Assembly (NCBI GenBank): GCA_035625415.1
Contig: DASPPQ010000070.1
Span: forward strand, 6,052 to 70,051
Source of the DNA: Thermodesulfobacteriota bacterium
Lineage (GTDB): Bacteria; Desulfobacterota; BSN033; UBA1163
DNA length: 64,000 nucleotides
Reading direction: 5' to 3'
In this document: one piece after another, positions 4,915 through 61,718 of the stretch
How positions within the stretch are numbered: the stretch's first letter is position 1
How the letters are laid out: each line of letters begins with the position of its first letter
Made by a program: the position numbers and the translations under genes
The notes under the pieces: generated by a model
Told to the model about the DNA's origin: nothing
The model's database searches: none
The model's input: only the letters and a program-made list of their open reading frames with translations

Positions 4915-5877
4915 TCAATGTTTTTTCTTTAAACTGCTTAACCATCCGTAGATTCCGTTAGGAAGGAAAATGATCACGCCAACCAAAATGGCCCCGTAAA
5001 TCATCAGATGGACCCCGTGGTAACCACCCAATATTCCCCGGGTCACCTCTCCCAGAGGGCCCAAGACGAATGATCCGATGATGGGACCATAGACGGTCCC
5101 CACGCCTCCGACAATGGGCCTCAAAAAAATTTCAATAGAGGTGTCGACACCGAAGGTGACCGGTGGGTCGATGTAAAGGAAATACTGGGCATAGAAGGTT
5201 CCTCCAAGGGCAGTGAGAAAGCCACTGATCAAAATCGCCAAAAGTTTATATGAAAATGTATTGACCCCTATTGCCTCGGCTGAATCCTCGTCTTCCCGGA
5301 TGGCGGCAAGATAGTCGCCGATCTTTCCCGTGTCAATCCACCGGGCAACCCAGAGAACACCGATGAACATCAGTAAGATCACAAAGTAGTAGAAAATCTT
5401 CGATTCATGCTGAAAAGAGAGGGGGGCATTTCCTTTAAGGGGAATGAGGATGCCCATCGCCTTTCCGGTCACATCCAGATTGAGAGAGATCAAACGCAAC
5501 AATTCAGCGAACGCTAATGTCGCCAGGGCAAAGTAAGGGCCTCTCAGTCCATAATGGAAACAAAGAGAGCCGATCAACAGTCCTAATAACATTCCCAGAA
5601 GACCCCCCAAGACCATTCCAATCCACGGACTGATGTTCCAATTGACGAAGGCCAATGTCGAGGCGTAAGCCCCGATTCCAAAGAAGGCAGCGTGCCCAAA
5701 AGAAAACTGGCCAGCATAACCTCCCAAGATGTTCCAACTCGTTCCCAAATATCCGTAGAAGAGAATCATGATAAGAACATGAACAAAATACGAGGGGAGT
5801 AAAAAGGGCAGCAAAATAGAGATCAAGGTAAGGCCGAACCAAAAGAAAAGTACCTTTGGAATTCCATTTCTAGACAT
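4915..5877 (-). CDS. livM: HAAT-family ABC transporter permease (LivM-type)
   Basis: Polytopic membrane protein with GGYAGQFSFGHAAFFGIGAY and REDEDSAEAIG motifs characteristic of LivM. Confidence 0.85.
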   Translation of the reverse strand: MSRNGIPKVLFFWFGLTLISILLPFLLPSYFVHVLIMILFYGYLGTSWNILGGYAGQFSFGHAAFFGIGAYASTLAFVNWNISPWIGMVLGGLLGMLLGLLIGSLCFHYGLRGPYFALATLAFAELLRLISLNLDVTGKAMGILIPLKGNAPLSFQHESKIFYYFVILLMFIGVLWVARWIDTGKIGDYLAAIREDEDSAEAIGVNTFSYKLLAILISGFLTALGGTFYAQYFLYIDPPVTFGVDTSIEIFLRPIVGGVGTVYGPIIGSFVLGPLGEVTRGILGGYHGVHLMIYGAILVGVIIFLPNGIYGWLSSLKKKH

Positions 5878-6742
5878 GCTTTTTCCCGAACAACCCTTTC
5901 GGTCTGAGCAGAAGCGTGAGAATGAAGATGGAATAGATGGGCACTTGCTTCAAGGAGCCAGGAAGCAAAACTTCGCCAAGAGATTCTGCGATTCCTACAA
6001 TGAGAGCTCCAAAAAATGCTCCCCAAAAACTTCCCAGCCCACCCAGGACGACAATCACAAAGGCTGTAATGACGAAGACCATGCCGACCGTAGGGGTGAT
6101 ATAAAAAAAGGGGGTGATCATGGTGCCTGCAGCAGCGACACAGGCGGCGCCAATTCCAAAGGCGACGGAGTATATGATTTTCCTGTGGATGCCGATCACA
6201 TGTGCTCCTTCTCGATCCTGGGAAATAGCTCGAATTGCTTTTCCAGAATCGGTTTTGGTCAAGAAGAGGTAGAGCAGTAAGGTCATCGTAAGGGCCGCTC
6301 CAAAAGCGATCATCCGGGGAGTACTGAACATCAACTTGTGTATATGCATGGCTCCTGCTAAGGTTGTCACCTGTAACATCCGATAGTTCGGGCTCCATAG
6401 GAATAAAGCTAAGTTCTCGAGGAAGAGGGCGATCCCTAAGGTTAAAAGAAGCTGATTGTGTTCAGGCCCCTCGATGATCCGATTGATCAGACCATACTGG
6501 ATGAGGAACCCAACCACGAAGAGAGCGCACATACTGATAACTAATGAGAAATAGGGATGGATATCCAAGAAGATCGAAACCCAATAAGTGAAATACATAC
6601 CAAGCATCATAAAAGCGCCATGAGCAAAATTGATGATCTTCATCACCCCAAAGATCAAGTTCAGACTGACTGCGACCAATGCATAGACTCCCCCCATGAG
6701 GAGTCCGCTGATGATGGCTTGCGCCAAAATGTTGGTATCCAT
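5870..6742 (-). CDS. livH: HAAT-family ABC transporter permease (LivH-type)
   Basis: The ORF track gives 5870..6874, which would overlap the SBP gene. The ATG at 6742 yields the canonical LivH N-terminus MDTNILAQAIISGLLMGGVYALVA..NFAHG. Confidence 0.85.
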   Translation of the reverse strand: MDTNILAQAIISGLLMGGVYALVAVSLNLIFGVMKIINFAHGAFMMLGMYFTYWVSIFLDIHPYFSLVISMCALFVVGFLIQYGLINRIIEGPEHNQLLLTLGIALFLENLALFLWSPNYRMLQVTTLAGAMHIHKLMFSTPRMIAFGAALTMTLLLYLFLTKTDSGKAIRAISQDREGAHVIGIHRKIIYSVAFGIGAACVAAAGTMITPFFYITPTVGMVFVITAFVIVVLGGLGSFWGAFFGALIVGIAESLGEVLLPGSLKQVPIYSIFILTLLLRPKGLFGKKHV

Positions 6743-6773
6743 CCCTACCCTCTCTGCAGCTAGCCAAACCAGG

Positions 6774-8033
6774 TCATTTACGATCTTTCCACTTGGGCAT
6801 CGGCCAAATCGGTCTGCTGGCAGCATACTCTTCAGGGAAAATGGAACGACGCTTCCCATTTTGAACCTGAGCAATCACCGTCCTCGCATCTTTATTCTGC
6901 CCGTCCTCGCCAAAGAGTATAGCGCAGGGTTGGATGTTCCCTTTTTCTCCTGGCTTCAAATTGGTCTTCGTAAGAGCCTCCCGTATTTTTTCACGATCCG
7001 TTGAGGCTGCTCTCTCAAGGGCATCCTTCAGCACGTAAACACACGTGTAGCACATGGAGGCGACGCAGTCCATTCCAACGCCATTCCTCTTAATAAAATT
7101 CTCATTGGCCTCTTTGACTCCAGGAATCTTCAAGTCATCTTCCCAGTTCTCACAAACAGAGACGTATTCTGTCAATTTCCCCAACGCTTTAATGTAGGCA
7201 TCATCTTGATGTCCTCCACCCATGCCAATGATGGCCTGCGTGTTGAAGTCAAGATCTTTCATCGTTCTTGTTGAGAGAATGGCGTCAGAGATGTAGGCAA
7301 CCGTTAAGGCCACATCCGGGTTCGCCGCTTTTAGCTTTGAAATAATACCCGTAAGGTCTGAGGTGGCATGAGGATAGGGAAGGTCGGCTACAATGGAATA
7401 CCCTTTCTCCGCAGCCAAACCTTTCCAGGCTTTTGCACTGGATTGACCCCAAAGGGTATCTTCATAATATATCCCGATATTCTTTATCTTGATCCCCCTT
7501 TTTTTCTGAATATAGGCCAAATATTCGTATTCATCCCGAATATGCCATGCATCGGTAGCAATGGGTCTGAAGGTATACTTAAACCCGCGCTGTGTGATCG
7601 ACTCGGCTACGCCAACGCCCACGATGAAAGGGGTTTTATACTTTTCAGCTACCTGGGTGGTAGCAAAAACGACGGCACTTTGAAAGGCTCCCATGACGGC
7701 AACGGCACCCCTTTGTATATGTTTTTCTGTCTCTGCCATTCCCACCTCCGGTTTTCCTTCGCTATCCCCGAGCATGATTCTTAATCTCGCACCGCCTAAG
7801 GATTTGATTCCACCGGTTGCGTTGATCTCATCCACTGCCTGTTCATAGCCTCTTCGATCACTCAACCCCAGGGGAGCCAAAGGACCGGTCAGAGGTTCAA
7901 CCACACCAAACTTTACTTCTTCTACAGAATGGGCTAATCGAGGGAATCCAGAGAGGGTAACAACAGCTCCCAATGCGCCCATTCCTTTTATGAATTCTCT
8001 TCGATTTACACCTCTTTTAACCCTCTTCTTCAT
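6774..8033 (-). CDS. periplasmic substrate-binding protein, LivK/type-I PBP family, Tat signal
   Basis: Twin-arginine leader NRREFIKGMGALGAVVTLSG, then the type-I PBP pattern (FGVVEPLTGPLAP..G). Ligand not inferable from sequence. Confidence 0.85.
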   Translation of the reverse strand: MKKRVKRGVNRREFIKGMGALGAVVTLSGFPRLAHSVEEVKFGVVEPLTGPLAPLGLSDRRGYEQAVDEINATGGIKSLGGARLRIMLGDSEGKPEVGMAETEKHIQRGAVAVMGAFQSAVVFATTQVAEKYKTPFIVGVGVAESITQRGFKYTFRPIATDAWHIRDEYEYLAYIQKKRGIKIKNIGIYYEDTLWGQSSAKAWKGLAAEKGYSIVADLPYPHATSDLTGIISKLKAANPDVALTVAYISDAILSTRTMKDLDFNTQAIIGMGGGHQDDAYIKALGKLTEYVSVCENWEDDLKIPGVKEANENFIKRNGVGMDCVASMCYTCVYVLKDALERAASTDREKIREALTKTNLKPGEKGNIQPCAILFGEDGQNKDARTVIAQVQNGKRRSIFPEEYAASRPIWPMPKWKDRK

Positions 8034-40217: not shown

Positions 40218-40357
40218 GTCATTCCGGGCTTGACCCGGAATCCAGGCGTCGTCACGGCGAAAGCCGGGACCATTTTATACCCTGGGTCCCGATTTTCATC
40301 GGGAACCCTGGATTCCTGCTGGAGTCTACCCCGTACCTGATACGGGGCAGGAATGAC
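40218..40357. repeat. MITE/REP-like nested-palindrome element, copy 2 (longest)
   Basis: gtcattccgggcttgacccggaatccagg ... ctggattcctgctggagtctaccccgtacctgatacggggcaggaatgac. Confidence 0.75.
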
Positions 40358-49847: not shown

Positions 49848-50195
49848 ATGCCAAAGAAGGATTTTCTACCATTTTCTTACAAGCGACTGGCGAAAGAATT
49901 CCCGGAGGTTGAAAAGGAGTATGATCGCCTCGCCAAGAAATGTCATGCCTCCGGACCTCTTAACGAAAAGATGCGCAGGCTGATCAAGCTGGGGATCGCG
50001 ATTGGTTCGGAATCAGAGGGCGCCATCAAGTCCCACGCCCGAAGAGCCTTGGCCATCGGCGTCACTCCGGATGAGATTCGACATGCCGTCCTTCTCGGGC
50101 TGACCACCATTGGGTTTCCAAAAATGATCGCCGCATTGAATTGGGTTCATGAGGCCCTTGAGAAGGGTCCCCTGAGACATCGAAGAGGGGATTAG
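49848..50195 (+). CDS. carboxymuconolactone decarboxylase / AhpD-like family protein
   Basis: 115 aa. Pattern ..LDEKTRRLIKLGIAIG....AIKSHARRALAIG.T.DEI.HAVLL. Confidence 0.65.
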   Translation: MPKKDFLPFSYKRLAKEFPEVEKEYDRLAKKCHASGPLNEKMRRLIKLGIAIGSESEGAIKSHARRALAIGVTPDEIRHAVLLGLTTIGFPKMIAALNWVHEALEKGPLRHRRGD

Positions 50196-50317
50196 AGCAG
50201 AATCTCGTTTCGGCATTCGCCAAAACGCTAAACCTTTTAGAAAGAGTGCGCTCCTTTTAATGGTTGCCCGCAAGCGCATGCGGGAGGCAGAGGAGCAAAA
50301 GAGAAAGGATTTTAGAA

Positions 50318-50530
50318 ATGGGAGAGAAAAAGAGCTACAAGGTCAAAACGTTTACGACAGAACTAAAAATTTTCCAAACGAAAAGAGAGTTGGAGGTCTT
50401 GGATGAAAAGGTCAATCGTTTCATCGCTGAAAACAAAGTGAAGAAAGTTGTCTCGGTCAGCGACACGACGACGACGGACAATACTGGCGCTACGATCGGG
50501 TTGATCCGGGTGTTGACTTATGAAATATAG
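50318..50530 (+). CDS. small hypothetical protein (70 aa)
   Basis: The ATG at 50318 follows AAAGGA. YKVKTFTT...LDEKVNRFIAENKVKKVVSVS is loosely Cse60/DUF2758-like (weak). Confidence 0.4.
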   Translation: MGEKKSYKVKTFTTELKIFQTKRELEVLDEKVNRFIAENKVKKVVSVSDTTTTDNTGATIGLIRVLTYEI

Positions 50531-50698: not shown

Positions 50699-50953
50699 AT
50701 GACCCAATGGGAATATCAGATCACGATTCACGAACTGCCGGTGCGGCAGGCCGGAACAACTGACCGTACGATTGAATGCGATCAGGACGGCCTCTGCTTT
50801 GTCCACGACATCTTTCCAGGAAGCATTAAATGGCTGGAAGATCTCTTTCGTGAGAAAGGGAACGACGGCTGGGAGTTGGTTCAATCCGGATACCACAGCA
50901 GGGAGCTCCTTTGCATATGGAAGAGGAGAAAAGAGACCGGGGAGAAAGTCTGA
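50699..50953 (+). CDS. DUF4177-like small protein
   Basis: MTQWEYQI....GNDGWELVQ, the pattern typical of DUF4177. Confidence 0.5.
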   Translation: MTQWEYQITIHELPVRQAGTTDRTIECDQDGLCFVHDIFPGSIKWLEDLFREKGNDGWELVQSGYHSRELLCIWKRRKETGEKV

Positions 50954-52119
50954 GAAGATTTATTCTCTCTCGGATTGAGAAAGGGGGTCCCATTCCTTTT
51001 TCTCAATTTATGGAGTGGTGCCTTTATCATCCCGAATTCGGTTATTACCAATCCAAAGGGGTAACCATCGGCAAGCAGGGTGATTACTATACGAGTCCCT
51101 CCGTCAGCCCCCTTTTCGGACATTTGATCGCCAAACAACTCTTCCAGATGGCTGAGATCTTGGGAGGAGAAAGCTTTGATGTGGTCGAGATGGGAGGGGG
51201 CAGAGGATTTCTCTGTGAGGATATTTTAGATTGGGCAAAAAAAAGCTTCCCGGCTTTCTACCAACACCTCCGCTATCACCTCATTGAGCCCTCTCCTCTT
51301 TCCTTAAAAGAGCAGAGGGAAAGGCTCCGTGAAAAAGAAAGAGAAGGAAGAGTTTTTTGGATCGACCCTAAAAAGTTCGTAGAAGGAACGGTCCAAATTC
51401 AAGGATGTTTCCTCTCTAACGAACTCATTGACGCCTTCCCCGTTCACAGAGTTATCCTCGACCGAGGGGTTTTGAAGGAAATCTATGTCACACATCGAAA
51501 CGGCCAATTTGAAGAACAGTGCGGAGAATTGTCGGATTCCAGGATCGCTTCCTATTTCCACTCCATGGATAACCCTCTGGAAGAGGGCCACAAGGCAGAG
51601 GTGAATCTACTGGCATTGGAATGGATGGAAAGAGTGGCTCGGTGCTTGCAACGGGGATTCGTCCTGACGATCGATTACGGCTATCTTGCTGACGAGATCT
51701 ATGGTCCCGGTCGACGGGAGGGAACACTCCACTGTTACTTTCAACATCAGACCTCAGAAAATCCCTACGAACGCTTAGGGGAGCAGGACATCACCTCCCA
51801 TGTCAACTTTACGAGCTTGATTCGAAAGGGAGAAGAGACTGGCCTCCGTTTCACCGGCCTTGTCCCACAATACCGCTTCCTCATCGGGCTTGGCATCCTC
51901 GGGCAGATAGAGACTTTGGGGAAGCAACTATCTGAATTGGACGGGCTAAAATTAAGGCTTTCCTTAAAGAGCCTGATCGAACCGGAGATGGGAATGGGTG
52001 AAGTCTTTAAGGTACTGGTCCAACATAAAGGAATAGATCAGCCCCAATTGGATGGGTTAAGAGATCTCGGCTCGATCCCCTTTCCCGCCTCGGTGGAGGG
52101 AGATCGGAGGTTCCGGTGA
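50917..52119 (+). CDS. MidA/NDUFAF7-family SAM-dependent methyltransferase (DUF185)
   Basis: PIPFSQFMEWCLYHPEFGYYQS, EMGGGRGFL, NELIDAFPVH, DITSHVNF. Confidence 0.8.
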   Translation: MEEEKRDRGESLRRFILSRIEKGGPIPFSQFMEWCLYHPEFGYYQSKGVTIGKQGDYYTSPSVSPLFGHLIAKQLFQMAEILGGESFDVVEMGGGRGFLCEDILDWAKKSFPAFYQHLRYHLIEPSPLSLKEQRERLREKEREGRVFWIDPKKFVEGTVQIQGCFLSNELIDAFPVHRVILDRGVLKEIYVTHRNGQFEEQCGELSDSRIASYFHSMDNPLEEGHKAEVNLLALEWMERVARCLQRGFVLTIDYGYLADEIYGPGRREGTLHCYFQHQTSENPYERLGEQDITSHVNFTSLIRKGEETGLRFTGLVPQYRFLIGLGILGQIETLGKQLSELDGLKLRLSLKSLIEPEMGMGEVFKVLVQHKGIDQPQLDGLRDLGSIPFPASVEGDRRFR

Positions 52120-52694
52120 ACGTCCTGGGGATCTTTGGCAGCCCGCGAAGAGGCGGCAATACAGAAGTCCTTTTGGAAGAGGCCCTCAGGGGGGCCGAAA
52201 CGGAAGGAGCGAAGGTGGAGCGTCTTTATCTCTCCGACTTCACCATCACCCCCTGTAAAGAATGCCACGGATGCGACGCCACCGGGAATTGCGTCATCCT
52301 GGATGACATGCAAAAAATCTATCCCAAACTGCTGGAGGCGGATGTGGTCATTCTGGCCTCGCCAATCTTTTTCTACGGCGTCACTGCGTGGACCAAGGCC
52401 CTGATTGATCGAAGTCAGGCCCTCTGGTCAAGAAAATACCTTCTTAAAGATCCTTCTTTAGGGAAGGAAGGAAAAAAGAGAAAGGGTTTCTTTATTTCTG
52501 TTGGAGCGACAAAAGGACCCAAAGTCTTCGAAGGTGCCATCCTCACGGCCAAATATTTTTTTGATGTCCTCAACGCGGAATATGCGGGCGAACTCGTCTT
52601 CCGGGGCGTTGAAGCCAAGGGCGATATTTTGAAACACCCAGAGGCGCTTCGGCAGGCCCTTGAAGCTGGACGGAGGCTTGTTCAAAATCCATGA
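52116..52694 (+). CDS. iron-sulfur flavoprotein / NADPH-dependent FMN reductase family
   Basis: GIFGSPRRGGNT flavodoxin-like P-loop. Compact Cys cluster CKECHGCDATGNC. GTG start overlaps the MidA stop (GTGA). Confidence 0.75.
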   Translation: MNVLGIFGSPRRGGNTEVLLEEALRGAETEGAKVERLYLSDFTITPCKECHGCDATGNCVILDDMQKIYPKLLEADVVILASPIFFYGVTAWTKALIDRSQALWSRKYLLKDPSLGKEGKKRKGFFISVGATKGPKVFEGAILTAKYFFDVLNAEYAGELVFRGVEAKGDILKHPEALRQALEAGRRLVQNP

Positions 52695-52891
52695 AGCCCA
52701 GACTCCATGTGATCTGGAACGAAATCTATTGTAAAAGGTGCCTTCTCTGCGTGGAGGTCTGTCCGGTCCAAGTTCTCTCTCTCGAGAGGAATGAAATCAC
52801 GGAGAAAGAAGGATGCATCCGTTGTTACCAGTGCGAAGGCTACTGTCCAGACATCGCCATTGAAGTGATGGATGAAAAGGGTAAAGGTTGA
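52691..52891 (+). CDS. 2x[4Fe-4S] ferredoxin, delta subunit of 2-oxoacid:ferredoxin oxidoreductase
   Basis: CKRCLLCVEVCP and CIRCYQCEGYCP. ATGA overlap with the upstream gene. Confidence 0.8.
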   Translation: MKPRLHVIWNEIYCKRCLLCVEVCPVQVLSLERNEITEKEGCIRCYQCEGYCPDIAIEVMDEKGKG

Positions 52892-53934
52892 AACGACTCG
52901 TTTCCGGAAATGAAGCTATCTTTCAGGGAGCGGTACGGGCAGGTGCCAGTTACTTTGCTGGGTATCCCATCAGTCCCACCTCTGAGATATTGCAGCAGGC
53001 GGTCCTCTATTCAGAGGAGAACCCGGGTTTTCAATTTCTCCAGGCTGAGGATGAAATTGCTGCGGCCATTGCCACGATCTCTGCTTCACTGGCCGGAGCT
53101 AAGTCTTTTGCTGCCACCTCGGGACCGGGATTCTCTCTCATGCAGGAAGCCTTGGGATGGGGCCATGTCGTAGAGGCCCCCTGTGTCTTCGTCAATTCAA
53201 TGAGGGTGGGGCCATCGACCGGGATGCCCACTCAGCCGGCTCAATCGGATCTTCTTCAAATCAAGGCAGGAAGCGCAGGAGACTATTATCCCATCGCCTT
53301 CTATCCCAATTCGGTGAAGGAATGTTTCCTACTAACAGCTACTGCCTTTAACGCAGCCGAGGAATCGCTTTCACCGACCATCCTCCTTGCAGACGCGTTT
53401 CTTTCCCACCTGTATGAGATCGTCGATCTTGAAGATATCGCCACAGAAGTTATTCCCCGCTCGAAAGAACCCTTGGGCCGGGGCCAAAGGCTATTTACTG
53501 GAACGGTTCACGATAAGATGGGAAATTTGAAAACCAACGATTCGGAGATCTACCGAGGATGGCTCTGGGAATTGAAGGGCCGTCATCATCGTGCTGCCGA
53601 GAAGTATCCTCTCTTCGAGTATCTTCCGCGTAAGGACTCCGAAACCCTCCTCATCGCCTTTGGAATTGCCTCGAGGATTATCTCATCTTTGAAAGATCGC
53701 TTCTCCATTTTTCGACCTATCCGGATTTATCCTGTTCTGGAGAAGGAATTGAACGAAGTGACCCGATCCTATCGCCACATTATCGTCGTCGAAGGCAACG
53801 ATGGGCAGTATGCAAGTTGGGTGGAATGTGCCATTTGCCGAAAGGTGATGAGAGTCCCCTGCTTGGGAGGAGGGTTCAAGCTCAAATGGATCCAAAGTCA
53901 GATTGAGGAGTGTTTGAGGGGGACGACAAGGTGA
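52888..53934 (+). CDS. 2-oxoacid:ferredoxin oxidoreductase alpha subunit
   Basis: SGNEAIFQGAVRAGASYFAGYPISPTSEIL. TTG start overlaps the delta-subunit stop (TTGA). Confidence 0.85.
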   Translation: MKRLVSGNEAIFQGAVRAGASYFAGYPISPTSEILQQAVLYSEENPGFQFLQAEDEIAAAIATISASLAGAKSFAATSGPGFSLMQEALGWGHVVEAPCVFVNSMRVGPSTGMPTQPAQSDLLQIKAGSAGDYYPIAFYPNSVKECFLLTATAFNAAEESLSPTILLADAFLSHLYEIVDLEDIATEVIPRSKEPLGRGQRLFTGTVHDKMGNLKTNDSEIYRGWLWELKGRHHRAAEKYPLFEYLPRKDSETLLIAFGIASRIISSLKDRFSIFRPIRIYPVLEKELNEVTRSYRHIIVVEGNDGQYASWVECAICRKVMRVPCLGGGFKLKWIQSQIEECLRGTTR

Positions 53935-54968
53935 TGGATCGCTCTTACAAAGAGCTCTTGAAACTGAGACGGTTCCCTCACACCTGGTGCCCGGGTTGCG
54001 GCATTGGCGCCGTATTAAAGAATGTGGCCATGGCCATCAAAGAACTCGGCTGGAATGACAAAAATACCGTTGCCGTGTCCGGAATCGGCTGTTCAGGGAG
54101 GATGTCCGGATACATGAACTTAGATGCGGTTCATACCCCTCATGGTCGAGCATTGACTTCCGCCGAGACCATCAAGACGATCCGCCCAGACCTCAATGTC
54201 ATTGTCCTCTCCGGAGACGGCGATCTAGCAAGCATTGGGGGAAACCACCTCCTCCATACCTCCCGCCGAAATCCTAACATCGCTGTCTTTTGTAATGATA
54301 ATGAGATCTACGGATTGACGGGTGGCCAGGCCGGACCAACCACGCCAAAAGGTGCGAAGACCATCACCTCACCCCGCGGAGAACCTAATTCACCGCTTCG
54401 GTTGGGTCATCTCCTGACCCAGCAAGCTCCCTATTTTTATGCGCGCACAACGGTTTATCACCTCAACCATTTTAAGGGATGTATTCGGGAGGCCCTTCTT
54501 TGGAAGGGGTTCAGCTTTGTGGACATCATCAGTGACTGCATTGAACTGAACGGAAGAAGGCTAGGTTTTAAAACAGCCCATCAGATGTTCAAGTGGTTTG
54601 ATGAAAGATTCCATATCGTCGAAGGCGAACGAGACCATCTCAGGGATGATGAATTGGGAATCGCCAGGGCATCGGAGGAGGAAGTGATCCCGTCGGCAGA
54701 GAGGGTGGAGAAAAAGCCTGAGATCCCGATGGAGAGTTTGAAACCTTTCACCCTCGAAGAGCTCCAGCGTTTTGATGGCACAGCAGGGAAACCCATTTAC
54801 ATCGCCTATAAAGGGAAAGTCTATGACCTTTCCTCAAGCCCCCTCTTTCAGGGAGAGAAAAGGATGCGATGTCATATTGCGGGTAAGGATCTGACGAAGG
54901 ATATCGACGGGGCACCTCATGGAGAAGACCTCGTTTTCAAATTTCCAGTGGTTGGGAGGTTAGCGTGA
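53934..54968 (+). CDS. 2-oxoacid:ferredoxin oxidoreductase beta (TPP) subunit fused to a C-terminal cytochrome-b5-like haem/steroid-binding domain
   Basis: WCPGCGIG, SGIGCSGR, GDGDLASIGGNH (TPP motif). Then a linker and FTLEELQRFDGTAGKPIYIAYKGKVYDLSSSPLF..AGKDLT..APHG (54747-54965). The ATG overlaps the alpha stop (TGATG). Confidence 0.8.
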   Translation: MDRSYKELLKLRRFPHTWCPGCGIGAVLKNVAMAIKELGWNDKNTVAVSGIGCSGRMSGYMNLDAVHTPHGRALTSAETIKTIRPDLNVIVLSGDGDLASIGGNHLLHTSRRNPNIAVFCNDNEIYGLTGGQAGPTTPKGAKTITSPRGEPNSPLRLGHLLTQQAPYFYARTTVYHLNHFKGCIREALLWKGFSFVDIISDCIELNGRRLGFKTAHQMFKWFDERFHIVEGERDHLRDDELGIARASEEEVIPSAERVEKKPEIPMESLKPFTLEELQRFDGTAGKPIYIAYKGKVYDLSSSPLFQGEKRMRCHIAGKDLTKDIDGAPHGEDLVFKFPVVGRLA

Positions 54969-54990
54969 GCAGACAGGCCTGCGCGGGGGT

Positions 54991-55085
54991 GTCATTCCCG
55001 TGCAGACGGGAACCCAGGAGTAGGTATTATAAAACCATGGATTCCCGGCGGAGTTTATCTCGATGAAAATCGAGACAGGAATGAA
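54991..55085. repeat. MITE/REP-like element, copy 4, between the beta and gamma subunit genes
   Basis: gtcattcccgtgcagacgggaacccagg...tggattcccggcggagtttatctcgatgaaaatcgagacaggaatgaa. Confidence 0.7.
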
Positions 55086-55137
55086 GAGAACATGGAAAAA
55101 ATCGTGAGGAAACACGCTTGAGGACACGAGGATTCTT

Positions 55138-55620
55138 ATGAAGCGAATCGTATTTACCGGAGTGGGGGGGCAATCGGTCAGGGTCATCTCCCACGTCCTT
55201 GCCATGGCATTGAAGGAGCTGGGCTATGAGGTCGCCCTTCTCTTTGACTACGATTCCCCCGTTCGCAATACACGGATCAGTGCCTATCTCACTTATGATC
55301 AAAGGCCCATCGAAAATCCGATGACCGACGAGGCGGACATTCTCATCCGGCTGCACGAAAAAGGAGACCGGCTCATCGCCCAGAAGACAATCTGCGATAC
55401 GGGGCTTTGTACGGACGAGGAGGTTCCTTTTGGAATGCTTGGGATTGAAAAGTTCGGCCAAGCGATCTTTGGCAACATGATCGCCCTTGGCAGACTTTTT
55501 CGATTGATCGATGTCGACATCTCTCATATCGAGCTGGAGAAACTCTTGCCCAAATCCTATCTCAAAGAGAATTTGAAGGCGATTCAACTGGGATATGATC
55601 TCAACCTTTATGAAGACTGA
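55138..55620 (+). CDS. 2-oxoacid:ferredoxin oxidoreductase gamma subunit
   Basis: MKRIVFTGVGGQSVRVISHVLAMA, the G-x-GGQG-like N-terminus of gamma subunits. 160 aa. Confidence 0.7.
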   Translation: MKRIVFTGVGGQSVRVISHVLAMALKELGYEVALLFDYDSPVRNTRISAYLTYDQRPIENPMTDEADILIRLHEKGDRLIAQKTICDTGLCTDEEVPFGMLGIEKFGQAIFGNMIALGRLFRLIDVDISHIELEKLLPKSYLKENLKAIQLGYDLNLYED

Positions 55621-55666
55621 GACCAGTGGCATGCATCTAACGGTTGTTGACAGTAGCCACCAGGCC

Positions 55667-55731
55667 GTCATTCCCTCGAAAGGGGGAATCCAGTTCAGAA
55701 ATCCTGGATTCCGGGTCAAGCCCGGAATGAC
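55667..55731. repeat. MITE/REP-like element, copy 5 (shortest)
   Basis: gtcattccctcgaaagggggaatccagttcagaaatcctggattccgggtcaagcccggaatgac. Confidence 0.75.
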
Positions 55732-55876
55732 AATTAAATTATGGGGACGTTTGACGCAATACACCAGGTCCGGGGTCATTGCTCATGACACATCCTTTTT
55801 GCAAAAGACGGGTTGGGGGAACCAAACGAAATGTGGGATAATTTAGTTAAGAAACGGACGGAAGGAGGAGAGTGGT

Positions 55877-56398
55877 ATGAAACTCAAAGGGAAAAAAGTA
55901 GTTCTCCTTGCGGAGAATAACTATGAGGACATGGAGCTCTGGGTTCCTTACTATCGATTGAAAGAGGAGGGCGCTGAGGTCACGATCGTCGGGACAGGAA
56001 GCAGCAAGACCTACACCAGCAAACATGGATATTCTGTCGAAGTGAGTCAAGAGGCAAAAAAGATTAACATCTCTAAATATGACGGCGTCGTCATCCCCGG
56101 AGGTTACGCCCCCGACCTGATGAGGCGTTATCCGGAGATGGTGAGGATTGTCAAGGACGCCCACCAGAAGGGAAAGGTCATCGCTGCCATCTGTCATGCC
56201 GGCTGGATGCTCGCCTCTGCTGGTATTCTGAAGGGAAAGAAAGTGACAGGTTTCTTCGCCATCAAAGATGACTTGATAAATGCTGGGGGAAACTATGTGG
56301 ATGAGGAAGTCGTCAGAGATGGAAACCTGATCACCTCAAGGAAACCGGATGATCTTCCCGCATTCTGTCGAGAGATGATCGAGGCGTTGGCCAAATAG
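55877..56398 (+). CDS. DJ-1/PfpI-family protein (class I glutamine amidotransferase-like)
   Basis: VVIPGGYAPD, nucleophile elbow AAICHAGWML, ITSRKPDDLPAF. Confidence 0.85.
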   Translation: MKLKGKKVVLLAENNYEDMELWVPYYRLKEEGAEVTIVGTGSSKTYTSKHGYSVEVSQEAKKINISKYDGVVIPGGYAPDLMRRYPEMVRIVKDAHQKGKVIAAICHAGWMLASAGILKGKKVTGFFAIKDDLINAGGNYVDEEVVRDGNLITSRKPDDLPAFCREMIEALAK

Positions 56399-56504: not shown

Positions 56505-57131
56505 ATGGGGAGTGAAAGAAAGGAAATATTGACCTGCCAGCACTGTGGAGCGGACGCAGACCTGACCATCGAGGGCTTTGAAAAAGTGGAGGATGTTATC
56601 CAAAGGGAGAAGAAACTCCCTTGCAAGACCTGTGGCCAGGGTTTGCCATGGACGGACCGAGAGGATATCAAGGCTGTCAAGGTAGCCATGGGAGCGGAAA
56701 TGAATGCCTATCAGACCTACTCAAAGGCTGCCAAGAAAACGATGAATCCTAAAGGGAGGGATATGTTTCTCCAACTTTCTGAATTTGAGATGAACCATTA
56801 TCAAGAATTGAAAGACCTCCTCAAATCGCTCCAGGAGAAAGGAGAGTGGATTCTCTACGAAGGAACTACCCTCAAGAAGAAGGTGATACCCTTGAAGATA
56901 GGGAAATCCAAAGGTCAGGAGCAGTTGACGGACATGGATGCTTTGAAAATTGCCGTACGAGAAGAGAAGAAGGCGGAGGCCTACTATCGATCCATGGCCG
57001 AGTTGACCAAGGACCCTCGAGGGAAGGATATGTATAAACGGTTAGCGAGTGAAGAGGCCCTTCACGAGAAGTTGCTCAACGACCAGTATTATAGTCTCCA
57101 CAATACGGGTTCATGGAGTTGGGGAGACTGA
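56505..57131 (+). CDS. diiron ferritin-like (rubrerythrin-type) protein with N-terminal Cys4 zinc-ribbon/rubredoxin-like element
   Basis: CQHC..27 aa..CKTC, then two E...ExxH half-sites (EMNAY...EFEMNH; REEKKAE...EEALH). Confidence 0.7.
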   Translation: MGSERKEILTCQHCGADADLTIEGFEKVEDVIQREKKLPCKTCGQGLPWTDREDIKAVKVAMGAEMNAYQTYSKAAKKTMNPKGRDMFLQLSEFEMNHYQELKDLLKSLQEKGEWILYEGTTLKKKVIPLKIGKSKGQEQLTDMDALKIAVREEKKAEAYYRSMAELTKDPRGKDMYKRLASEEALHEKLLNDQYYSLHNTGSWSWGD

Positions 57132-59472: not shown

Positions 59473-59919
59473 ATGGACAGGAAAAAATTTGAGGAGATCA
59501 TCCAATTTGCCGTCCAAAGAGAGATCGAATCGGTGAATTTTTATGACAGCGCAAGCAAACTGGTCAAATACTCTGGGACCAAGGATCTCTTTCTGGACTT
59601 TATGAAACAGGAAGAGGGACACAAGAGAAAGCTCGAAGAGTTGCGGGCGGGAAAAATTGCGGTGGGAAAGATCGAGAAAATTCCGAACCTGAAGATCAGT
59701 GACTATATGGTTGAAACGGAATTAAAGCCCGATATTTCCTACGGAGACATTCTCCGAATTGCTATGAAGAGAGAAGAACGTTCGGTAAAGCTTTATACGG
59801 ATTTGAATGAAAATAACCAAGATGAGAATCTTAAGAGTCTCTTCACCTTTCTGATTCAGGAGGAGAGCAAGCACAAATACCACATTGAAAGACTGTACGA
59901 TGATGAAGTATTAAAATAA
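59473..59919 (+). CDS. ferritin-like diiron protein (rubrerythrin family, no rubredoxin domain)
   Basis: QREIESVNFY...QEEGH and KREERSVKLY...QEESKH half-sites. 148 aa. Confidence 0.75.
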   Translation: MDRKKFEEIIQFAVQREIESVNFYDSASKLVKYSGTKDLFLDFMKQEEGHKRKLEELRAGKIAVGKIEKIPNLKISDYMVETELKPDISYGDILRIAMKREERSVKLYTDLNENNQDENLKSLFTFLIQEESKHKYHIERLYDDEVLK

Positions 59920-60133: not shown

Positions 60134-60292
60134 ATGCCAAAGTGGAAATGCAAAGTCTGTGGTTACATCTATGATCCAGAAAAAGGCGACCCTGATGGCA
60201 ATATCCCTCCCGGCACACCTTTTGATAAACTGCCTGATGACTGGGTTTGCCCTGTGTGCGGCGCTCCTAAAGATATGTTTGAAAAGGATTAG
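60134..60292 (+). CDS. rubredoxin (52 aa, not in ORF track)
   Basis: [52 protein letters not shown]. Canonical CxxCG...CPxCG. GAGGAG RBS upstream. Confidence 0.9.
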
Positions 60293-60422: not shown

Positions 60423-60975
60423 ATGACCGGGACATCTCGCTCTTCCAAACACTTCTTCATATTTTCTATTCTTTCAGCCCTCTTTACCCTATCGATGTTT
60501 TACCGTGTTTCAAGTGCCGTGATCGCTCCCGATCTCATGCGTGATCTGGGGCTTAATGCTGAAAATCTTGGTATGCTTGGCGGAGCGTTCTTCTATTCCT
60601 TTGCCCTCCTTCAGATCCCCATGGGGCCGATGCTTGATCGAATCGGCCCACGCATCGTGATCGCCTCTTTTTCGATGATCGGAGCATTGGGAGCATTGGT
60701 GTCTGCCTGTGATTTACGCCCATGCGAAAGAGCTCTTTCCCGTCGCCATTTCGGACACCGTGATGGCGGCTGTCAATTTCTTTACAATGGCCGGCCAAGC
60801 CTTTTTGATGCCAGCCATAGGGAAAATCATTGAATCCTTCCAACACGAAGGCCGCTCTTACCCAGCGGAAGCCTACCACCTCTCTTTCCTTGTCTTTTTT
60901 TTAGGGATGGCCATCAGCCTGGTCTTTTACGCCTTCTCCAAAAAAGAAAGACGCGGAGACCCGGCGACACGGTGA
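60423..60975 (+). pseudogene. MFS transporter remnant with large internal deletion and frameshift
   Basis: The frame-0 ORF carries TM1-3 with the MFS loop motif GPMLDRIGPR, then turns to nonsense after ..GALGALVSA. The +1 frame from about 60709 reads IYAHAKELFPVAISDTVMAAVNFFTMAGQAFLMPAIGK.., typical of TM11-12. About 200 codons of a normal MFS are missing. Confidence 0.65.
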
Positions 60976-61007: not shown

Positions 61008-61718
61008 TCATCGGTTTTCAACGGGAAAAGTTAACTGCCCTCCGTAGTAACCCAGAAGGGAAACGATGGGGGTGAGAAGGATCATCATGACAACGTAGAG
61101 GGGATGGGAAATTTGCGGTTGAGAAATTCGCCAGAGGATAAGAATCACTTCTAAGATAAGAAGAAGGATAGAAAGCTGGATCTTTCTTTTCACAAAATAG
61201 TTGAGCTTCAATCGGTAATTGACCCACCAGGTGAGGAGTCCGGTACCCATGGCAAAGGGAGTTGAGACCGCTCCCAAAACAAGAAGGTAGAAACTGGCGA
61301 CCTCGAAAGACCCTTTTTGAAAGAAGAGCGTGAAAAGGATAAAAAGAGAGGCCACCATGAAGAGGGCGATAGGAAAGTGGACAACCATCGGGTGCGGGTG
61401 GCGTCTGGCCATTGGAAATTTCTGAAGGAAGTTCTGGATGAGAGGAGGGAGGTGTTTCAATTCCTCAGGCAGTCCCTTCTTGACCGCTCCTATTCTGGGG
61501 TAACGCTCTAATACCTCTGTCCCATGGGGAGCTGCTGAGATCTCTGCGGTGAGGTCCTTTCCTGGAAGATGCCGATTCATGTGAAGGCCTTTGGCCCAGA
61601 GAGGGCTTTTTGTCACGTCATAAACCTTCCCTTGAAAGGCGATATAGACCGGTTTACCGTCCTTTCCGTTAAAAGATAATAATTCTTCAGCGGTGAGCTC
61701 CTTCATTCTACCTGCCAC
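61008..61718 (-). CDS. cytochrome-b5-like haem/steroid-binding domain fused to a 4-helix membrane domain (DUF2231-like)
   Basis: N-terminal LTAEELLSFNGKDGKPVYIAFQGKVYDVTKSPLW..PGKDLT..APHG, then 4 hydrophobic helices with His residues (HPHPMVVHFPIALF). Confidence 0.7.
   Translation of the reverse strand: MAGRMKELTAEELLSFNGKDGKPVYIAFQGKVYDVTKSPLWAKGLHMNRHLPGKDLTAEISAAPHGTEVLERYPRIGAVKKGLPEELKHLPPLIQNFLQKFPMARRHPHPMVVHFPIALFMVASLFILFTLFFQKGSFEVASFYLLVLGAVSTPFAMGTGLLTWWVNYRLKLNYFVKRKIQLSILLLILEVILILWRISQPQISHPLYVVMMILLTPIVSLLGYYGGQLTFPVENR

Follow-up and report, generated by a model that had tools for sequence, protein, structure and literature searches.

The beta-b5 gene and its operon

We analysed a 64,000-nt stretch of DNA from a Thermodesulfobacteriota bacterium (assembly GCA_035625415.1, contig DASPPQ010000070.1, positions 6,052 to 70,051), which is referred to here as the window. 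It carries an operon for a 2-oxoacid:ferredoxin oxidoreductase (OFOR), in which the gene for the beta subunit runs on in frame into a cytochrome-b5-like domain. This gene, designated beta-b5, lies at 53934..54968 on the plus strand, as do all genes of the operon, and encodes 344 aa from an ATG at 53934. An alternative GTG start at 53910 would give a 352-aa form. The ATG is the most likely start, because the orthologue alignments begin there and because it overlaps the stop codon of the alpha gene (TGATG).

The protein consists of three parts. The catalytic core (aa 1-247, 53934..54674) contains the thiamine pyrophosphate (TPP)-binding domain and four Cys residues for the proximal [4Fe-4S] cluster; Pfam TPP_enzyme_C (PF02775) matches the protein with 72 bits. 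It is followed by a Glu/Lys/Pro-rich flexible linker of 24 residues (aa 248-271, 54675..54746) and by a 73-aa MAPR-like cytochrome b5 domain of the cytb5M type (aa 272-344, 54747..54968 including the stop codon). A sequence-only reading of this DNA had proposed a cytochrome-b5-like domain at the C-terminus of an OFOR beta subunit. The Pfam scan for PF00173 (Cyt-b5) bears this out: against a gathering score of 23.7, the isolated domain scores 34.9 bits and the whole 352-aa form 31.0 bits, at aa 281-351. The coordinates given in that reading, 54747-54968, agree exactly with aa 272-344 plus the stop codon, and the peptide and acidic linker quoted there were correct.

The module begins with the gene of an Isf-type iron-sulfur flavoprotein (52116..52694; FMN_red, PF03358, 80.5 bits). 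Isf proteins combine an FMN_red fold with a compact CX2CX2CX4-7C motif, and the N-terminus of this protein contains CX2CX2CX5C, as CKECHGCDATGNC. The OFOR delta subunit (52691..52891, 66 aa) is ferredoxin-like and built for 2x[4Fe-4S]: it matches Pfam Fer4, shows two CxxCxxCxxxCP motifs in translation and scores below the curated cut-offs of the OorD/PorD-like NCBIfam profiles. The alpha subunit (52888..53934, 348 aa) matches POR_N with 164.7 bits, and its best NCBIfam match, the 2-oxoacid:acceptor oxidoreductase alpha profile PRK08659, reaches 277.6 bits, under the cut-off of 411. The gamma subunit (55138..55620, 160 aa; POR, 46.5 bits) is 79-95% identical in all syntenic loci. The four gene overlaps listed in the sequence-only reading, GTGA, ATGA, TTGA and TGATG, are all real. 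However, the first joins a methyltransferase (Methyltransf_28) to Isf, the others being Isf/delta, delta/alpha and alpha/beta, and gamma is not overlapped. A 169-nt spacer (54969..55137) separates gamma from beta-b5 without translational coupling, and in relatives its length varies from 0 to about 300 nt.

The beta-gamma spacer holds a hairpin-forming element resembling repetitive extragenic palindromic (REP) sequences at 54991-55018. Repeats of this kind, GTCATTCC(C/G)...GG(G/A)A(A/T)CCAG, also occur at 55666-55695, at 55704-55731 (minus strand) and at 40218-40245 (plus strand), so that gamma is flanked by them; two copies are identical (GTCATTCCGGGCTTGACCCGGAATCCAG), where 0 are expected by chance. 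The depth of metatranscriptome contigs peaks at 55596-55749 (47x in X26), with many loose ends. This spike suggests that the repeat flanking gamma is a multi-copy element shared across the community.

The beta core retains the cofactor motifs of an OFOR. C19, C22, C53 and C202, which would hold the proximal [4Fe-4S] cluster, are invariant across KorB-type and PorB-type sequences, as is G94-D95-G96 of the TPP motif, and D122-N123 is nearly so. The closest solved structure is the beta subunit of a 2-oxoglutarate:ferredoxin oxidoreductase (8YS5_C, E 1.5e-53, residues 4-226). The best NCBIfam scores were 210.8 for OorB PRK09628 (cut-off 364) and 201 for TIGR02177 (cut-off 261.9), and about 50 C-terminal profile positions had no match in beta. 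In the NCBIfam profile search none of the operon's OFOR subunits reached an equivalog cut-off, so no substrate is assigned. POR_N, POR and 2x Fer4 genes stand beside beta and are syntenic in all loci, as in a four-subunit OFOR. These results indicate that the window enzyme is a divergent KorB/OorB-like, delta-alpha-beta-gamma 2-oxoacid:ferredoxin oxidoreductase.

Conservation and transcription of the fusion

Among 5.8 billion proteins searched, at least 120 protein clusters matched with 76-92% identity and 100% query coverage. Most of them carry the precomputed architecture PF02775+PF00173. A scan of GTDB species genomes gave 29 loci in metagenome-assembled genomes (MAGs), counted at the species level and labelled Thermodesulfobacteriota, Syntrophaceae or Syntrophorhabdus. 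The same in-frame fusion was present in every MAG locus with a complete beta gene, with the exception of L026. In that locus (4954-7030) both the alpha and beta-b5 genes contain frameshifts; long-read assembly errors or a decaying copy are possible. Two MAG bins each hold two distinct beta-b5 operon copies (L014 and L022 in VGSS01, L001 and L028 in JBAVGF01), about 81-92% identical to the window. The pairs could be paralogous operons or mixed strains in a bin.

An assembly or frameshift artefact that fuses two separate genes would explain the beta-b5 reading frame in another way. Some PorB-type relatives do have b5 and beta as separate genes, as described below; otherwise nothing supports an artefact. 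The window itself comes from peat, and independently assembled contigs from three peat metagenomes cross the core, linker, b5 domain and gamma start with 0 indels. A 178-bp metatranscriptome contig (54639-54816, 0 differences) places core, linker and b5 on one RNA contig, so the junction around 54700-54750, where a frameshift would have refuted the sequence-only reading, is sound. Within the fusion frame, purifying selection is strong on the b5 domain and mild on the linker: among 26 orthologues, the median ratio of nonsynonymous to synonymous substitution rates (dN/dS) was 0.044 for the core of beta, against 0.076 for the b5 domain and 0.30 for the linker. Together with the protein clusters and MAG loci, the DNA and RNA contigs led us to reject the artefact, whose remaining probability is negligible.

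Metatranscriptome contigs cover every operon gene at 95% identity or more. One of them (52550-53222) joins Isf, delta and alpha, and another (54922-55167) bridges b5, spacer and gamma. The OFOR beta-b5 fusion is thus real, conserved and transcribed, and the view that the operon is a functional unit holds up through conserved synteny, purifying selection and transcription. One low-depth contig of X1 joins 54904 to 55138 with 18 mismatches and omits 233 nt between the 3' b5 region and the gamma start. It most likely represents a related strain whose beta-gamma spacer is short or missing, as it is in L015, and not a deletion here.

The linker differs from its neighbours in more than its substitution rate. 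Across the 26 orthologues only 1 of its 24 columns is invariant, its length is nearly constant, and residues 250-263 are predicted to be disordered (AlphaFold2 (AF2) predicted local distance difference test (pLDDT) below 50). In the AF2 model of full-length beta-b5 (pLDDT 65.6), residues 203-239 and the linker fall below 50. Since the linker keeps its length, evolves quickly in sequence and is predicted to be disordered, the domain would be mobile and tethered. These results indicate that a constrained b5 domain rides on what is predicted to be a flexible tether.

Identity of the b5 domain

The nearest solved structures to the domain were 6NZX (E 2.8e-19) and 6VZ6 (E 4.9e-17), which align without gaps over 76 residues at about 50% identity. 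Other structures were far weaker, namely PGRMC1 (E 6e-4), bovine b5 (E about 0.03) and an Arabidopsis MAPR, also well behind. The AF2 model of the domain (pLDDT 85.2) gave the same ranking in Foldseek, with template modelling scores of 0.86 (6NZX) and 0.84 (6VZ6) compared with about 0.65 for classical b5 and about 0.70 for PGRMC1. The MAPR inter-helical insertion (MIHIR) is absent from the ungapped 76-residue alignment to 6NZX, and the length agrees with the approximately 75 aa of cytb5M proteins. Sequence and model together place the domain, by descent, in the prokaryotic MAPR-like cytb5M class.

Two other identities were rejected. In MAPR proteins the haem is ligated by Tyr, as by Y113 of PGRMC1 with Y107, K163 and Y164. 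The loop LFQGEKRMRCH, which lies opposite PGRMC1 Y107-Y113, contains no Tyr, and the domain is therefore neither a MAPR nor a Tyr-ligated cytb5MY protein. A classical cytochrome b5 was rejected because the sequence has no HPGG motif. The label MAPR/COG4892-type, given to the domain from sequence alone, was essentially right in view of its nearest structures, although MAPR insertion and tyrosines are missing. A relative, P0161, bears the JGI label 'predicted heme/steroid binding protein'.

Two preprints describe cytb5M as a recently named prokaryotic class defined by 6NZX and 6VZ6, in whose crystals the haem is ligated by His42 and His61 and also contacted by S34, H46 and K68 (bioRxiv 10.1101/2021.11.30.470528, 10.1101/2021.11.17.468889). 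The class has Tyr-type bacterial relatives, cytb5MY, and the gene-context section of the cytb5M discovery preprint covers only cytb5MY/ferric-reductase operons of the Candidate Phyla Radiation (CPR). Searched exhaustively with HMMER, 1.84 billion representatives yielded 1489 relatives of the b5 domain, among which cytb5M-DUF2231 and CxxCH-membrane-cytb5M are common architectures. Some relatives (P0121-P0123, P0131) look like secreted proteins or lipoproteins and contain 3-6 tandem cytb5M repeats. Lipoprotein-like signal peptides were seen by eye at the N-termini of P0121, P0123 and P0131. In similar tandem proteins some repeats lack both histidines; the architecture is that of an extracellular multi-haem-b protein.

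An altered haem site

The bis-His ligation of cytb5M proteins is changed in the window domain, which makes it a divergent member of the class. In the ungapped alignment to 6NZX, the axial ligand His42 is replaced by Arg (R310), and S34, H46, H61 and K68 are conserved. R310 opens the motif R310-M311-R312-C313-H314 (54861..54875, plus strand), which corresponds to positions 42-46 in 6NZX numbering. The second axial ligand, His61, is retained as His329 in an APHG motif (54918..54920, plus strand). The question raised by the sequence-only reading, whether the haem-ligating residues are present, can thus be answered yes for His61 and no for His42.

The substitution is shared by the whole clade. Among the 120 clusters listed, position 42 is always Arg or, in about 8, Lys. 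Met43, Cys45, His46 and His61 are each found in 120 of 120 and Arg44 in 119, and four of the five polar haem contacts are kept across the clade (S34, H46, H61 and mostly K68). LFQGE(K/R)(R/K)MRCH is the most conserved stretch of the b5 domain. In the family at large, His42 was present in 252 and His61 in 244 of 277 domain instances, taken from the best 150 of the 1489 relatives' proteins. The only instances that lacked His42 and kept His61 were fragments of the same OFOR clade and one Tyr42 protein. These results point to a variant haem site that is fixed, selected and, in the set searched, confined to the OFOR fusion.

Loss of an axial ligand could mean that the domain binds no haem and serves as a structural scaffold or assembly element, or that its ligand is some other small hydrophobic molecule, as has been suggested for certain MAPR proteins. 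The replacement of His42 would fit this, as would the ligand stretch of the AF2 domain model, which is a loop with the lowest pLDDT of the model (68) and no clear helix. The pattern of conservation tells otherwise: His61, His46, S34 and the residues around the pocket vary little or not at all, the conservation of the ligand loop is hard to explain without a cofactor, and the closest relatives, 6NZX and 6VZ6, bind haem. We therefore regard a haem-free domain as very unlikely. The His42Arg/Lys variant is predicted to bind haem, which would either be re-ligated, by His46, Met43 or Cys45 together with His61, or have an open or labile sixth position. C313 is the only Cys in the b5 domain and linker, and the pair that forms a regulatory disulfide in Desulfovibrio africanus pyruvate:ferredoxin oxidoreductase (PFOR) has no counterpart here.

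Independent PorB-type fusions and split genes

One of the matches in the b5-domain search, P0161, is a PorB-type beta subunit with the same cytb5M domain. With P0161 as the query, a protein search gave about 35 clusters of PorB-cytb5M fusions from Chloroflexi MAGs and 'Ca. Wunengus' (Brocadiaceae, Brocadiales); the proteins are 385-446 aa long and go by the name pyruvate ferredoxin oxidoreductase beta. All of them keep the canonical His42, His46 and His61. Because their beta parts are just about 28-32% identical to the window's beta, PorB-cytb5M is an independent fusion to another OFOR subfamily.

There are also PorB proteins without the fusion that are about 70% identical to the beta part of the PorB fusions. 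Of the 4 closest unfused PorB operons examined, 3 have a stand-alone cytb5M gene of 68-77 aa directly after porB. It lies 56 nt 3' of porB in L036 (77 aa) and 55 nt 3' in L042 (68 aa). In L041 the source assembly's gene caller had missed it, and we found the cytb5M open reading frame (ORF) at about 5440-5667 in a 332-nt gap after porB; small cytb5M genes may thus be under-annotated beside OFOR operons. The fourth operon, L037, has no b5 gene and carries a flavodiiron protein gene where cytb5M sits elsewhere. The bis-His site is canonical in the split porB/cytb5M versions as well. That the two are fused in some lineages and adjacent in others is classical evidence that OFOR beta and cytb5M work together. 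This split-gene evidence comes from the PorB-type lineage; the best 120 matches to the window's KorB-type beta were all from the fused clade, and the GTDB genome scan gave fused loci only.

Gene neighbourhood

Essentially all loci of the window's lineage share one gene order: AhpD-like CMD protein, methyltransferase, Isf, delta, alpha, beta-b5, gamma, DJ-1/PfpI, rubrerythrin and metal P-type ATPase, with further genes between the first two. In the window, the AhpD-like carboxymuconolactone-decarboxylase-family protein is encoded at 49848..50195 (plus strand; CMD, 53.6 bits; syntenic). The DJ-1/PfpI family protein (55877..56398, plus strand; Pfam, 190.6 bits) stands 3' of gamma in most loci. 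It is followed by a rubrerythrin-family protein with an N-terminal CxxC...CxxC module (56505..57131, plus strand; Pfam Rubrerythrin), which is kept in nearly all loci whose flank reaches that far. Further downstream lie a second rubrerythrin/ferritin-like di-iron protein of 148 aa without rubredoxin domain (59473..59919, plus strand; Rubrerythrin, 48.9 bits) and a rubredoxin of 52 aa (60134..60292, plus strand; Rubredoxin, 88.5 bits).

The PorB-type operons are set among similar genes. Glutaredoxin (Grx), a thioredoxin reductase (TrxR)-like flavoprotein and rubrerythrin (Rbr) flank L030 and L032, the latter also with FMN_red and Rbr-RBDX. Desulfoferrodoxin (Dfx, a superoxide reductase (SOR)) and FMN_red flank L033 and L035, and two rubredoxins flank L038. 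L039 has Rbr, RBDX-like, FMN_red, a further Rbr and IscS/NifU, and L040 has FMN_red and IscS. Of the split-gene loci, L036 is flanked by Grx, Rbr, FMN_red and then IscS/NifU, L041 by TrxR-like, Rbr, FMN_red and IscS genes, and L042 by Rbr-RBDX. The FMN_red proteins beside PorB-type OFOR-b5 operons are 43-50% identical to the window's Isf, and all full-length copies contain CX2CX2CX5C. Isf is thus orthologous across phyla and is the most consistent neighbour of b5-linked OFOR operons. All b5-linked OFOR operons examined sit among genes for defence against O2 and reactive oxygen species (ROS).

IscS (Aminotran_5) and NifU genes follow PorB-cytb5M operons in L036 (7237-9300), L039 (9141-11638), L040 (5896-7410) and L041 (5758-7094), and L036 and L039 have TusA genes too. 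This suggests that Fe-S cluster repair or assembly belongs to the PorB-cytb5M module. In the window, two ORFs without Pfam match (50264-50530, 88 aa; 50699-50953, 84 aa) lie upstream of the methyltransferase-Isf-OFOR genes, the second overlapping the methyltransferase start. They are 53-93% identical, in conserved position, in most related loci. Two further ORFs, 60423-60833 and 60709-60975, overlap and resemble pieces of a single membrane transporter gene broken by a frameshift; a pseudogene or a local assembly error is possible.

A second cytb5M protein is encoded at 61008..61718 on the minus strand, 6 kb from the OFOR. It combines a bis-His cytb5M domain (GLH..RH..APH; 48% identity to the fused domain by tblastn) with a DUF2231 membrane domain (HPHP..VHFP motif), matching Pfam Cyt-b5 and DUF2231, and also occurs in L027 (12552-12770, minus strand). 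We found no published function for the cytb5M-DUF2231 architecture. The protein is a possible membrane partner of the OFOR.

This partner would suit a general catabolic outlet, in which the tethered cytochrome replaces or supplements ferredoxin and feeds cytb5M-DUF2231 and a respiratory chain, with no specific link to oxygen stress. The canonical cytb5M-DUF2231 gene nearby and its conservation in L027 speak for such an outlet, and the common occurrence of cytb5M-DUF2231 and CxxCH-membrane-cytb5M points to membrane electron transfer. However, the consistent neighbours are Isf, rubrerythrin, SOR and rubredoxin and not respiratory complexes, and the PorB-type loci examined contain no DUF2231 gene. 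Moreover, syntrophic-type anaerobes would give up energy conservation if their -500 mV electrons went by way of a b5 haem. We consider a general outlet unlikely.

Proposed function

The roles suggested in the sequence-only reading, an extra redox or ligand-sensing module or an alternative electron outlet, still stand as hypotheses. We propose, with moderate confidence, that the b5 domain is a tethered haem redox partner of the OFOR within an oxygen/ROS-defence module. In established OFOR chemistry, TPP hands the electrons of 2-oxoacid decarboxylation to the [4Fe-4S] cluster of beta, from where they reach two delta clusters, as they presumably do here. Isf of Methanosarcina accepts ferredoxin electrons and reduces O2 and H2O2. 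A previous report located the OFOR electron exit at the two delta clusters and identified the distal, solvent-exposed cluster as the oxygen-sensitive point (PMC4257069). Rubrerythrin-like peroxidases without rubredoxin domain have been reported to require an external electron donor (PMC3317640). The swinging haem domain would dock at or near the exposed exit cluster and take up electrons there. Since the unit sits in a conserved oxygen/ROS-defence module, we infer that the domain would hand them to co-encoded O2- or peroxide-reducing proteins, that is, Isf, rubrerythrin-type di-iron proteins, rubredoxin or superoxide reductase. Such a drain could protect the oxygen-labile OFOR when oxygen intrudes, and would also make the enzyme an electron source for defence.

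In the bis-His versions, PorB-type or split, a relay is the natural reading. In the His42Arg/Lys version the potential or coordination of the haem must differ if haem is bound as predicted, and a sixth position that is labile or open would lend itself to reaction with O2/H2O2 or to sensing. The remodelled site of the window's clade may thus change the haem potential, or make the haem reactive or responsive to O2/H2O2. A bolder form of the proposal, which we hold to be doubtful, takes the remodelled haem itself as the reactive site: Isf, OFOR(beta-cytb5M) and rubrerythrin/rubredoxin would form a 2-oxoacid-fuelled O2/peroxide-reducing system of strict anaerobes. His61 would then be the proximal ligand, the distal side, lined by Arg42, His46 and Cys45, would be open or labile, and O2 or H2O2 would be reduced at the haem, directly in front of the vulnerable exit cluster. 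As a speculation, the Arg-x-x-x-His spacing of the site may be reminiscent of peroxidase distal pockets.

Several points weigh against a haem redox partner in oxygen defence. The axial ligand His42 is gone in the window's clade, where haem binding is a prediction. The oxygen-defence neighbourhood also surrounds L037, the unfused PorB operon without b5 gene, so that the neighbourhood is a property of these OFOR clades and not proof of b5 function. The loci are phylogenetically non-independent, and the neighbourhoods compared are those of b5-linked OFOR operons and close unfused relatives. Docking of b5 at delta is drawn by analogy, and the full-length AF2 model is poor (pLDDT 65.6). Finally, b5-type haem typically lies at about -100 to +50 mV and OFOR clusters at about -500 mV. 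The drop is large, so permanent coupling would waste low-potential electrons, which favours gating or sensing.

A sensor or protective cap meets this last point, as it involves no potential mismatch of the kind that burdens a permanent relay. Here the haem, either five-coordinate or with a labile ligand, held by His61 and a switchable Cys45, Met43 or His46, would sense O2, H2O2, NO, CO or the redox state without relaying catalytic electrons, and the domain would shield the distal [4Fe-4S] cluster or gate the electron exit. Switchable ligation is typical of haem sensors. The loss of His42 is specific to the clade that has the invariant Cys45 and Met43 beside His46, and Grx/TrxR-like genes occur in several PorB-type operons. 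D. africanus PFOR provides a precedent, a C-terminal occluding switch under thioredoxin control (PMC4257069). On the other hand, the PorB-type fusions and split versions keep the bis-His site of a classic electron carrier and poor ligand sensor, the long flexible tether suits a shuttle equally well, and a single Cys makes an intramolecular disulfide of the D. africanus type impossible. A sensor or cap is therefore a possible alternative, though not a probable one, and we retain the tethered redox partner as the preferred reading.

Comparison with known systems

The ancient, notoriously oxygen-labile OFORs hold a central place in anaerobic carbon metabolism and CO2 fixation, and how they are protected when oxygen intrudes is only partly understood. 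The haem domain was gained independently by two OFOR subfamilies in three phyla, always with Isf, rubrerythrin, SOR or rubredoxin genes, and this context points to a direct electron route from 2-oxoacids to ROS defence. The hosts of the window's type are Thermodesulfobacteriota that are abundant and transcriptionally active in peat and wetland soils, habitats in which carbon turnover is governed by fluctuating oxygen. For the cytb5M proteins, relatives of MAPR/PGRMC1 represented by two crystal structures, the fusion and neighbour evidence gives a first functional context and a concrete partner. If the idea of an OFOR that protects itself through a reactive haem were true, the prokaryotic cytb5M ancestors of the MAPR/PGRMC1 family would have their first physiological function. 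With Met-Arg-Cys-His invariant, the change of His42 to Arg/Lys offers a natural experiment on how b5 domains ligate haem.

The nearest relatives of the domain, 6NZX (Hadesarchaea KUO41884.1) and 6VZ6 (Methanococcoides burtonii WP_011499504.1), have the same fold and length and likewise no MAPR insertion. They are free-standing archaeal bis-His proteins of 78 aa, whereas the window domain is fused to OFOR beta and has Arg/Lys42 with invariant Met43 and Cys45. The nearest known counterpart of the enzyme, the 2-oxoglutarate:ferredoxin oxidoreductase of 8YS5/8YS6 (KorB/OorB family), shares the TPP motif, the four cluster Cys and the partner subunits. Its beta subunit (273 aa) has its last approximately 47 residues beyond the aligned region, where the window protein has the linker and cytb5M after residue 247.

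Tethered b5 domains are known from other enzymes. Sulfite oxidase 1SOX, one of the Foldseek matches, carries a b5-fold haem domain on a flexible hinge as an electron shuttle; flavocytochrome b2, assimilatory nitrate reductase and b5-fused desaturases are further examples. Electron transfer from b5 to the di-iron site of desaturases parallels a possible route from b5 to rubrerythrin. However, these domains are classical, clade-2 HPGG-type, aerobic and mostly eukaryotic, and none sits on a TPP/Fe-S oxidoreductase. The pyruvate:NADP+ oxidoreductase of Euglena and Cryptosporidium is a PFOR with a C-terminal NADPH-cytochrome P450 reductase-like module, that is, a fused alternative acceptor. Unlike the window enzyme, it is a eukaryotic single-chain PFOR whose acceptor is a flavoprotein that reduces NADP+, with no haem domain.

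Two cases of OFOR protection are known. In D. africanus PFOR, an extension at the C-terminus, domain VII, stretches as far as the distal Fe-S cluster and occludes it (PMC4257069). Like the b5 domain, domain VII is an appendage at the C-terminus of the TPP/beta-equivalent domain and is linked to coping with oxygen. It differs as a cofactor-free peptide of about 60 aa with a thioredoxin-reducible disulfide and no relation to b5 in sequence or fold, whereas the window domain has a single Cys and a haem fold. In Campylobacter jejuni, the hemerythrins HerA and HerB protect Por and Oor (PMC4257069). They are likewise O2-reactive accessory metalloproteins that keep OFORs working, but they are separate, unfused di-iron proteins without haem. 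Beside the disulfide switch and the hemerythrins, a haem domain wired to beta points to a third strategy.

The sequence-only reading knew of no described OFOR with this fusion, and this stands for the literature covered: our searches, which included the cytb5M preprints, turned up no description of an OFOR-b5 fusion. The architecture already sits unremarked in public protein databases under generic names, including its second, PorB-type version. None of the known systems compared here pairs a haem b5 domain with an OFOR. New are the recurrent link between OFOR and cytb5M, its oxygen-defence context and the clade-specific haem site.

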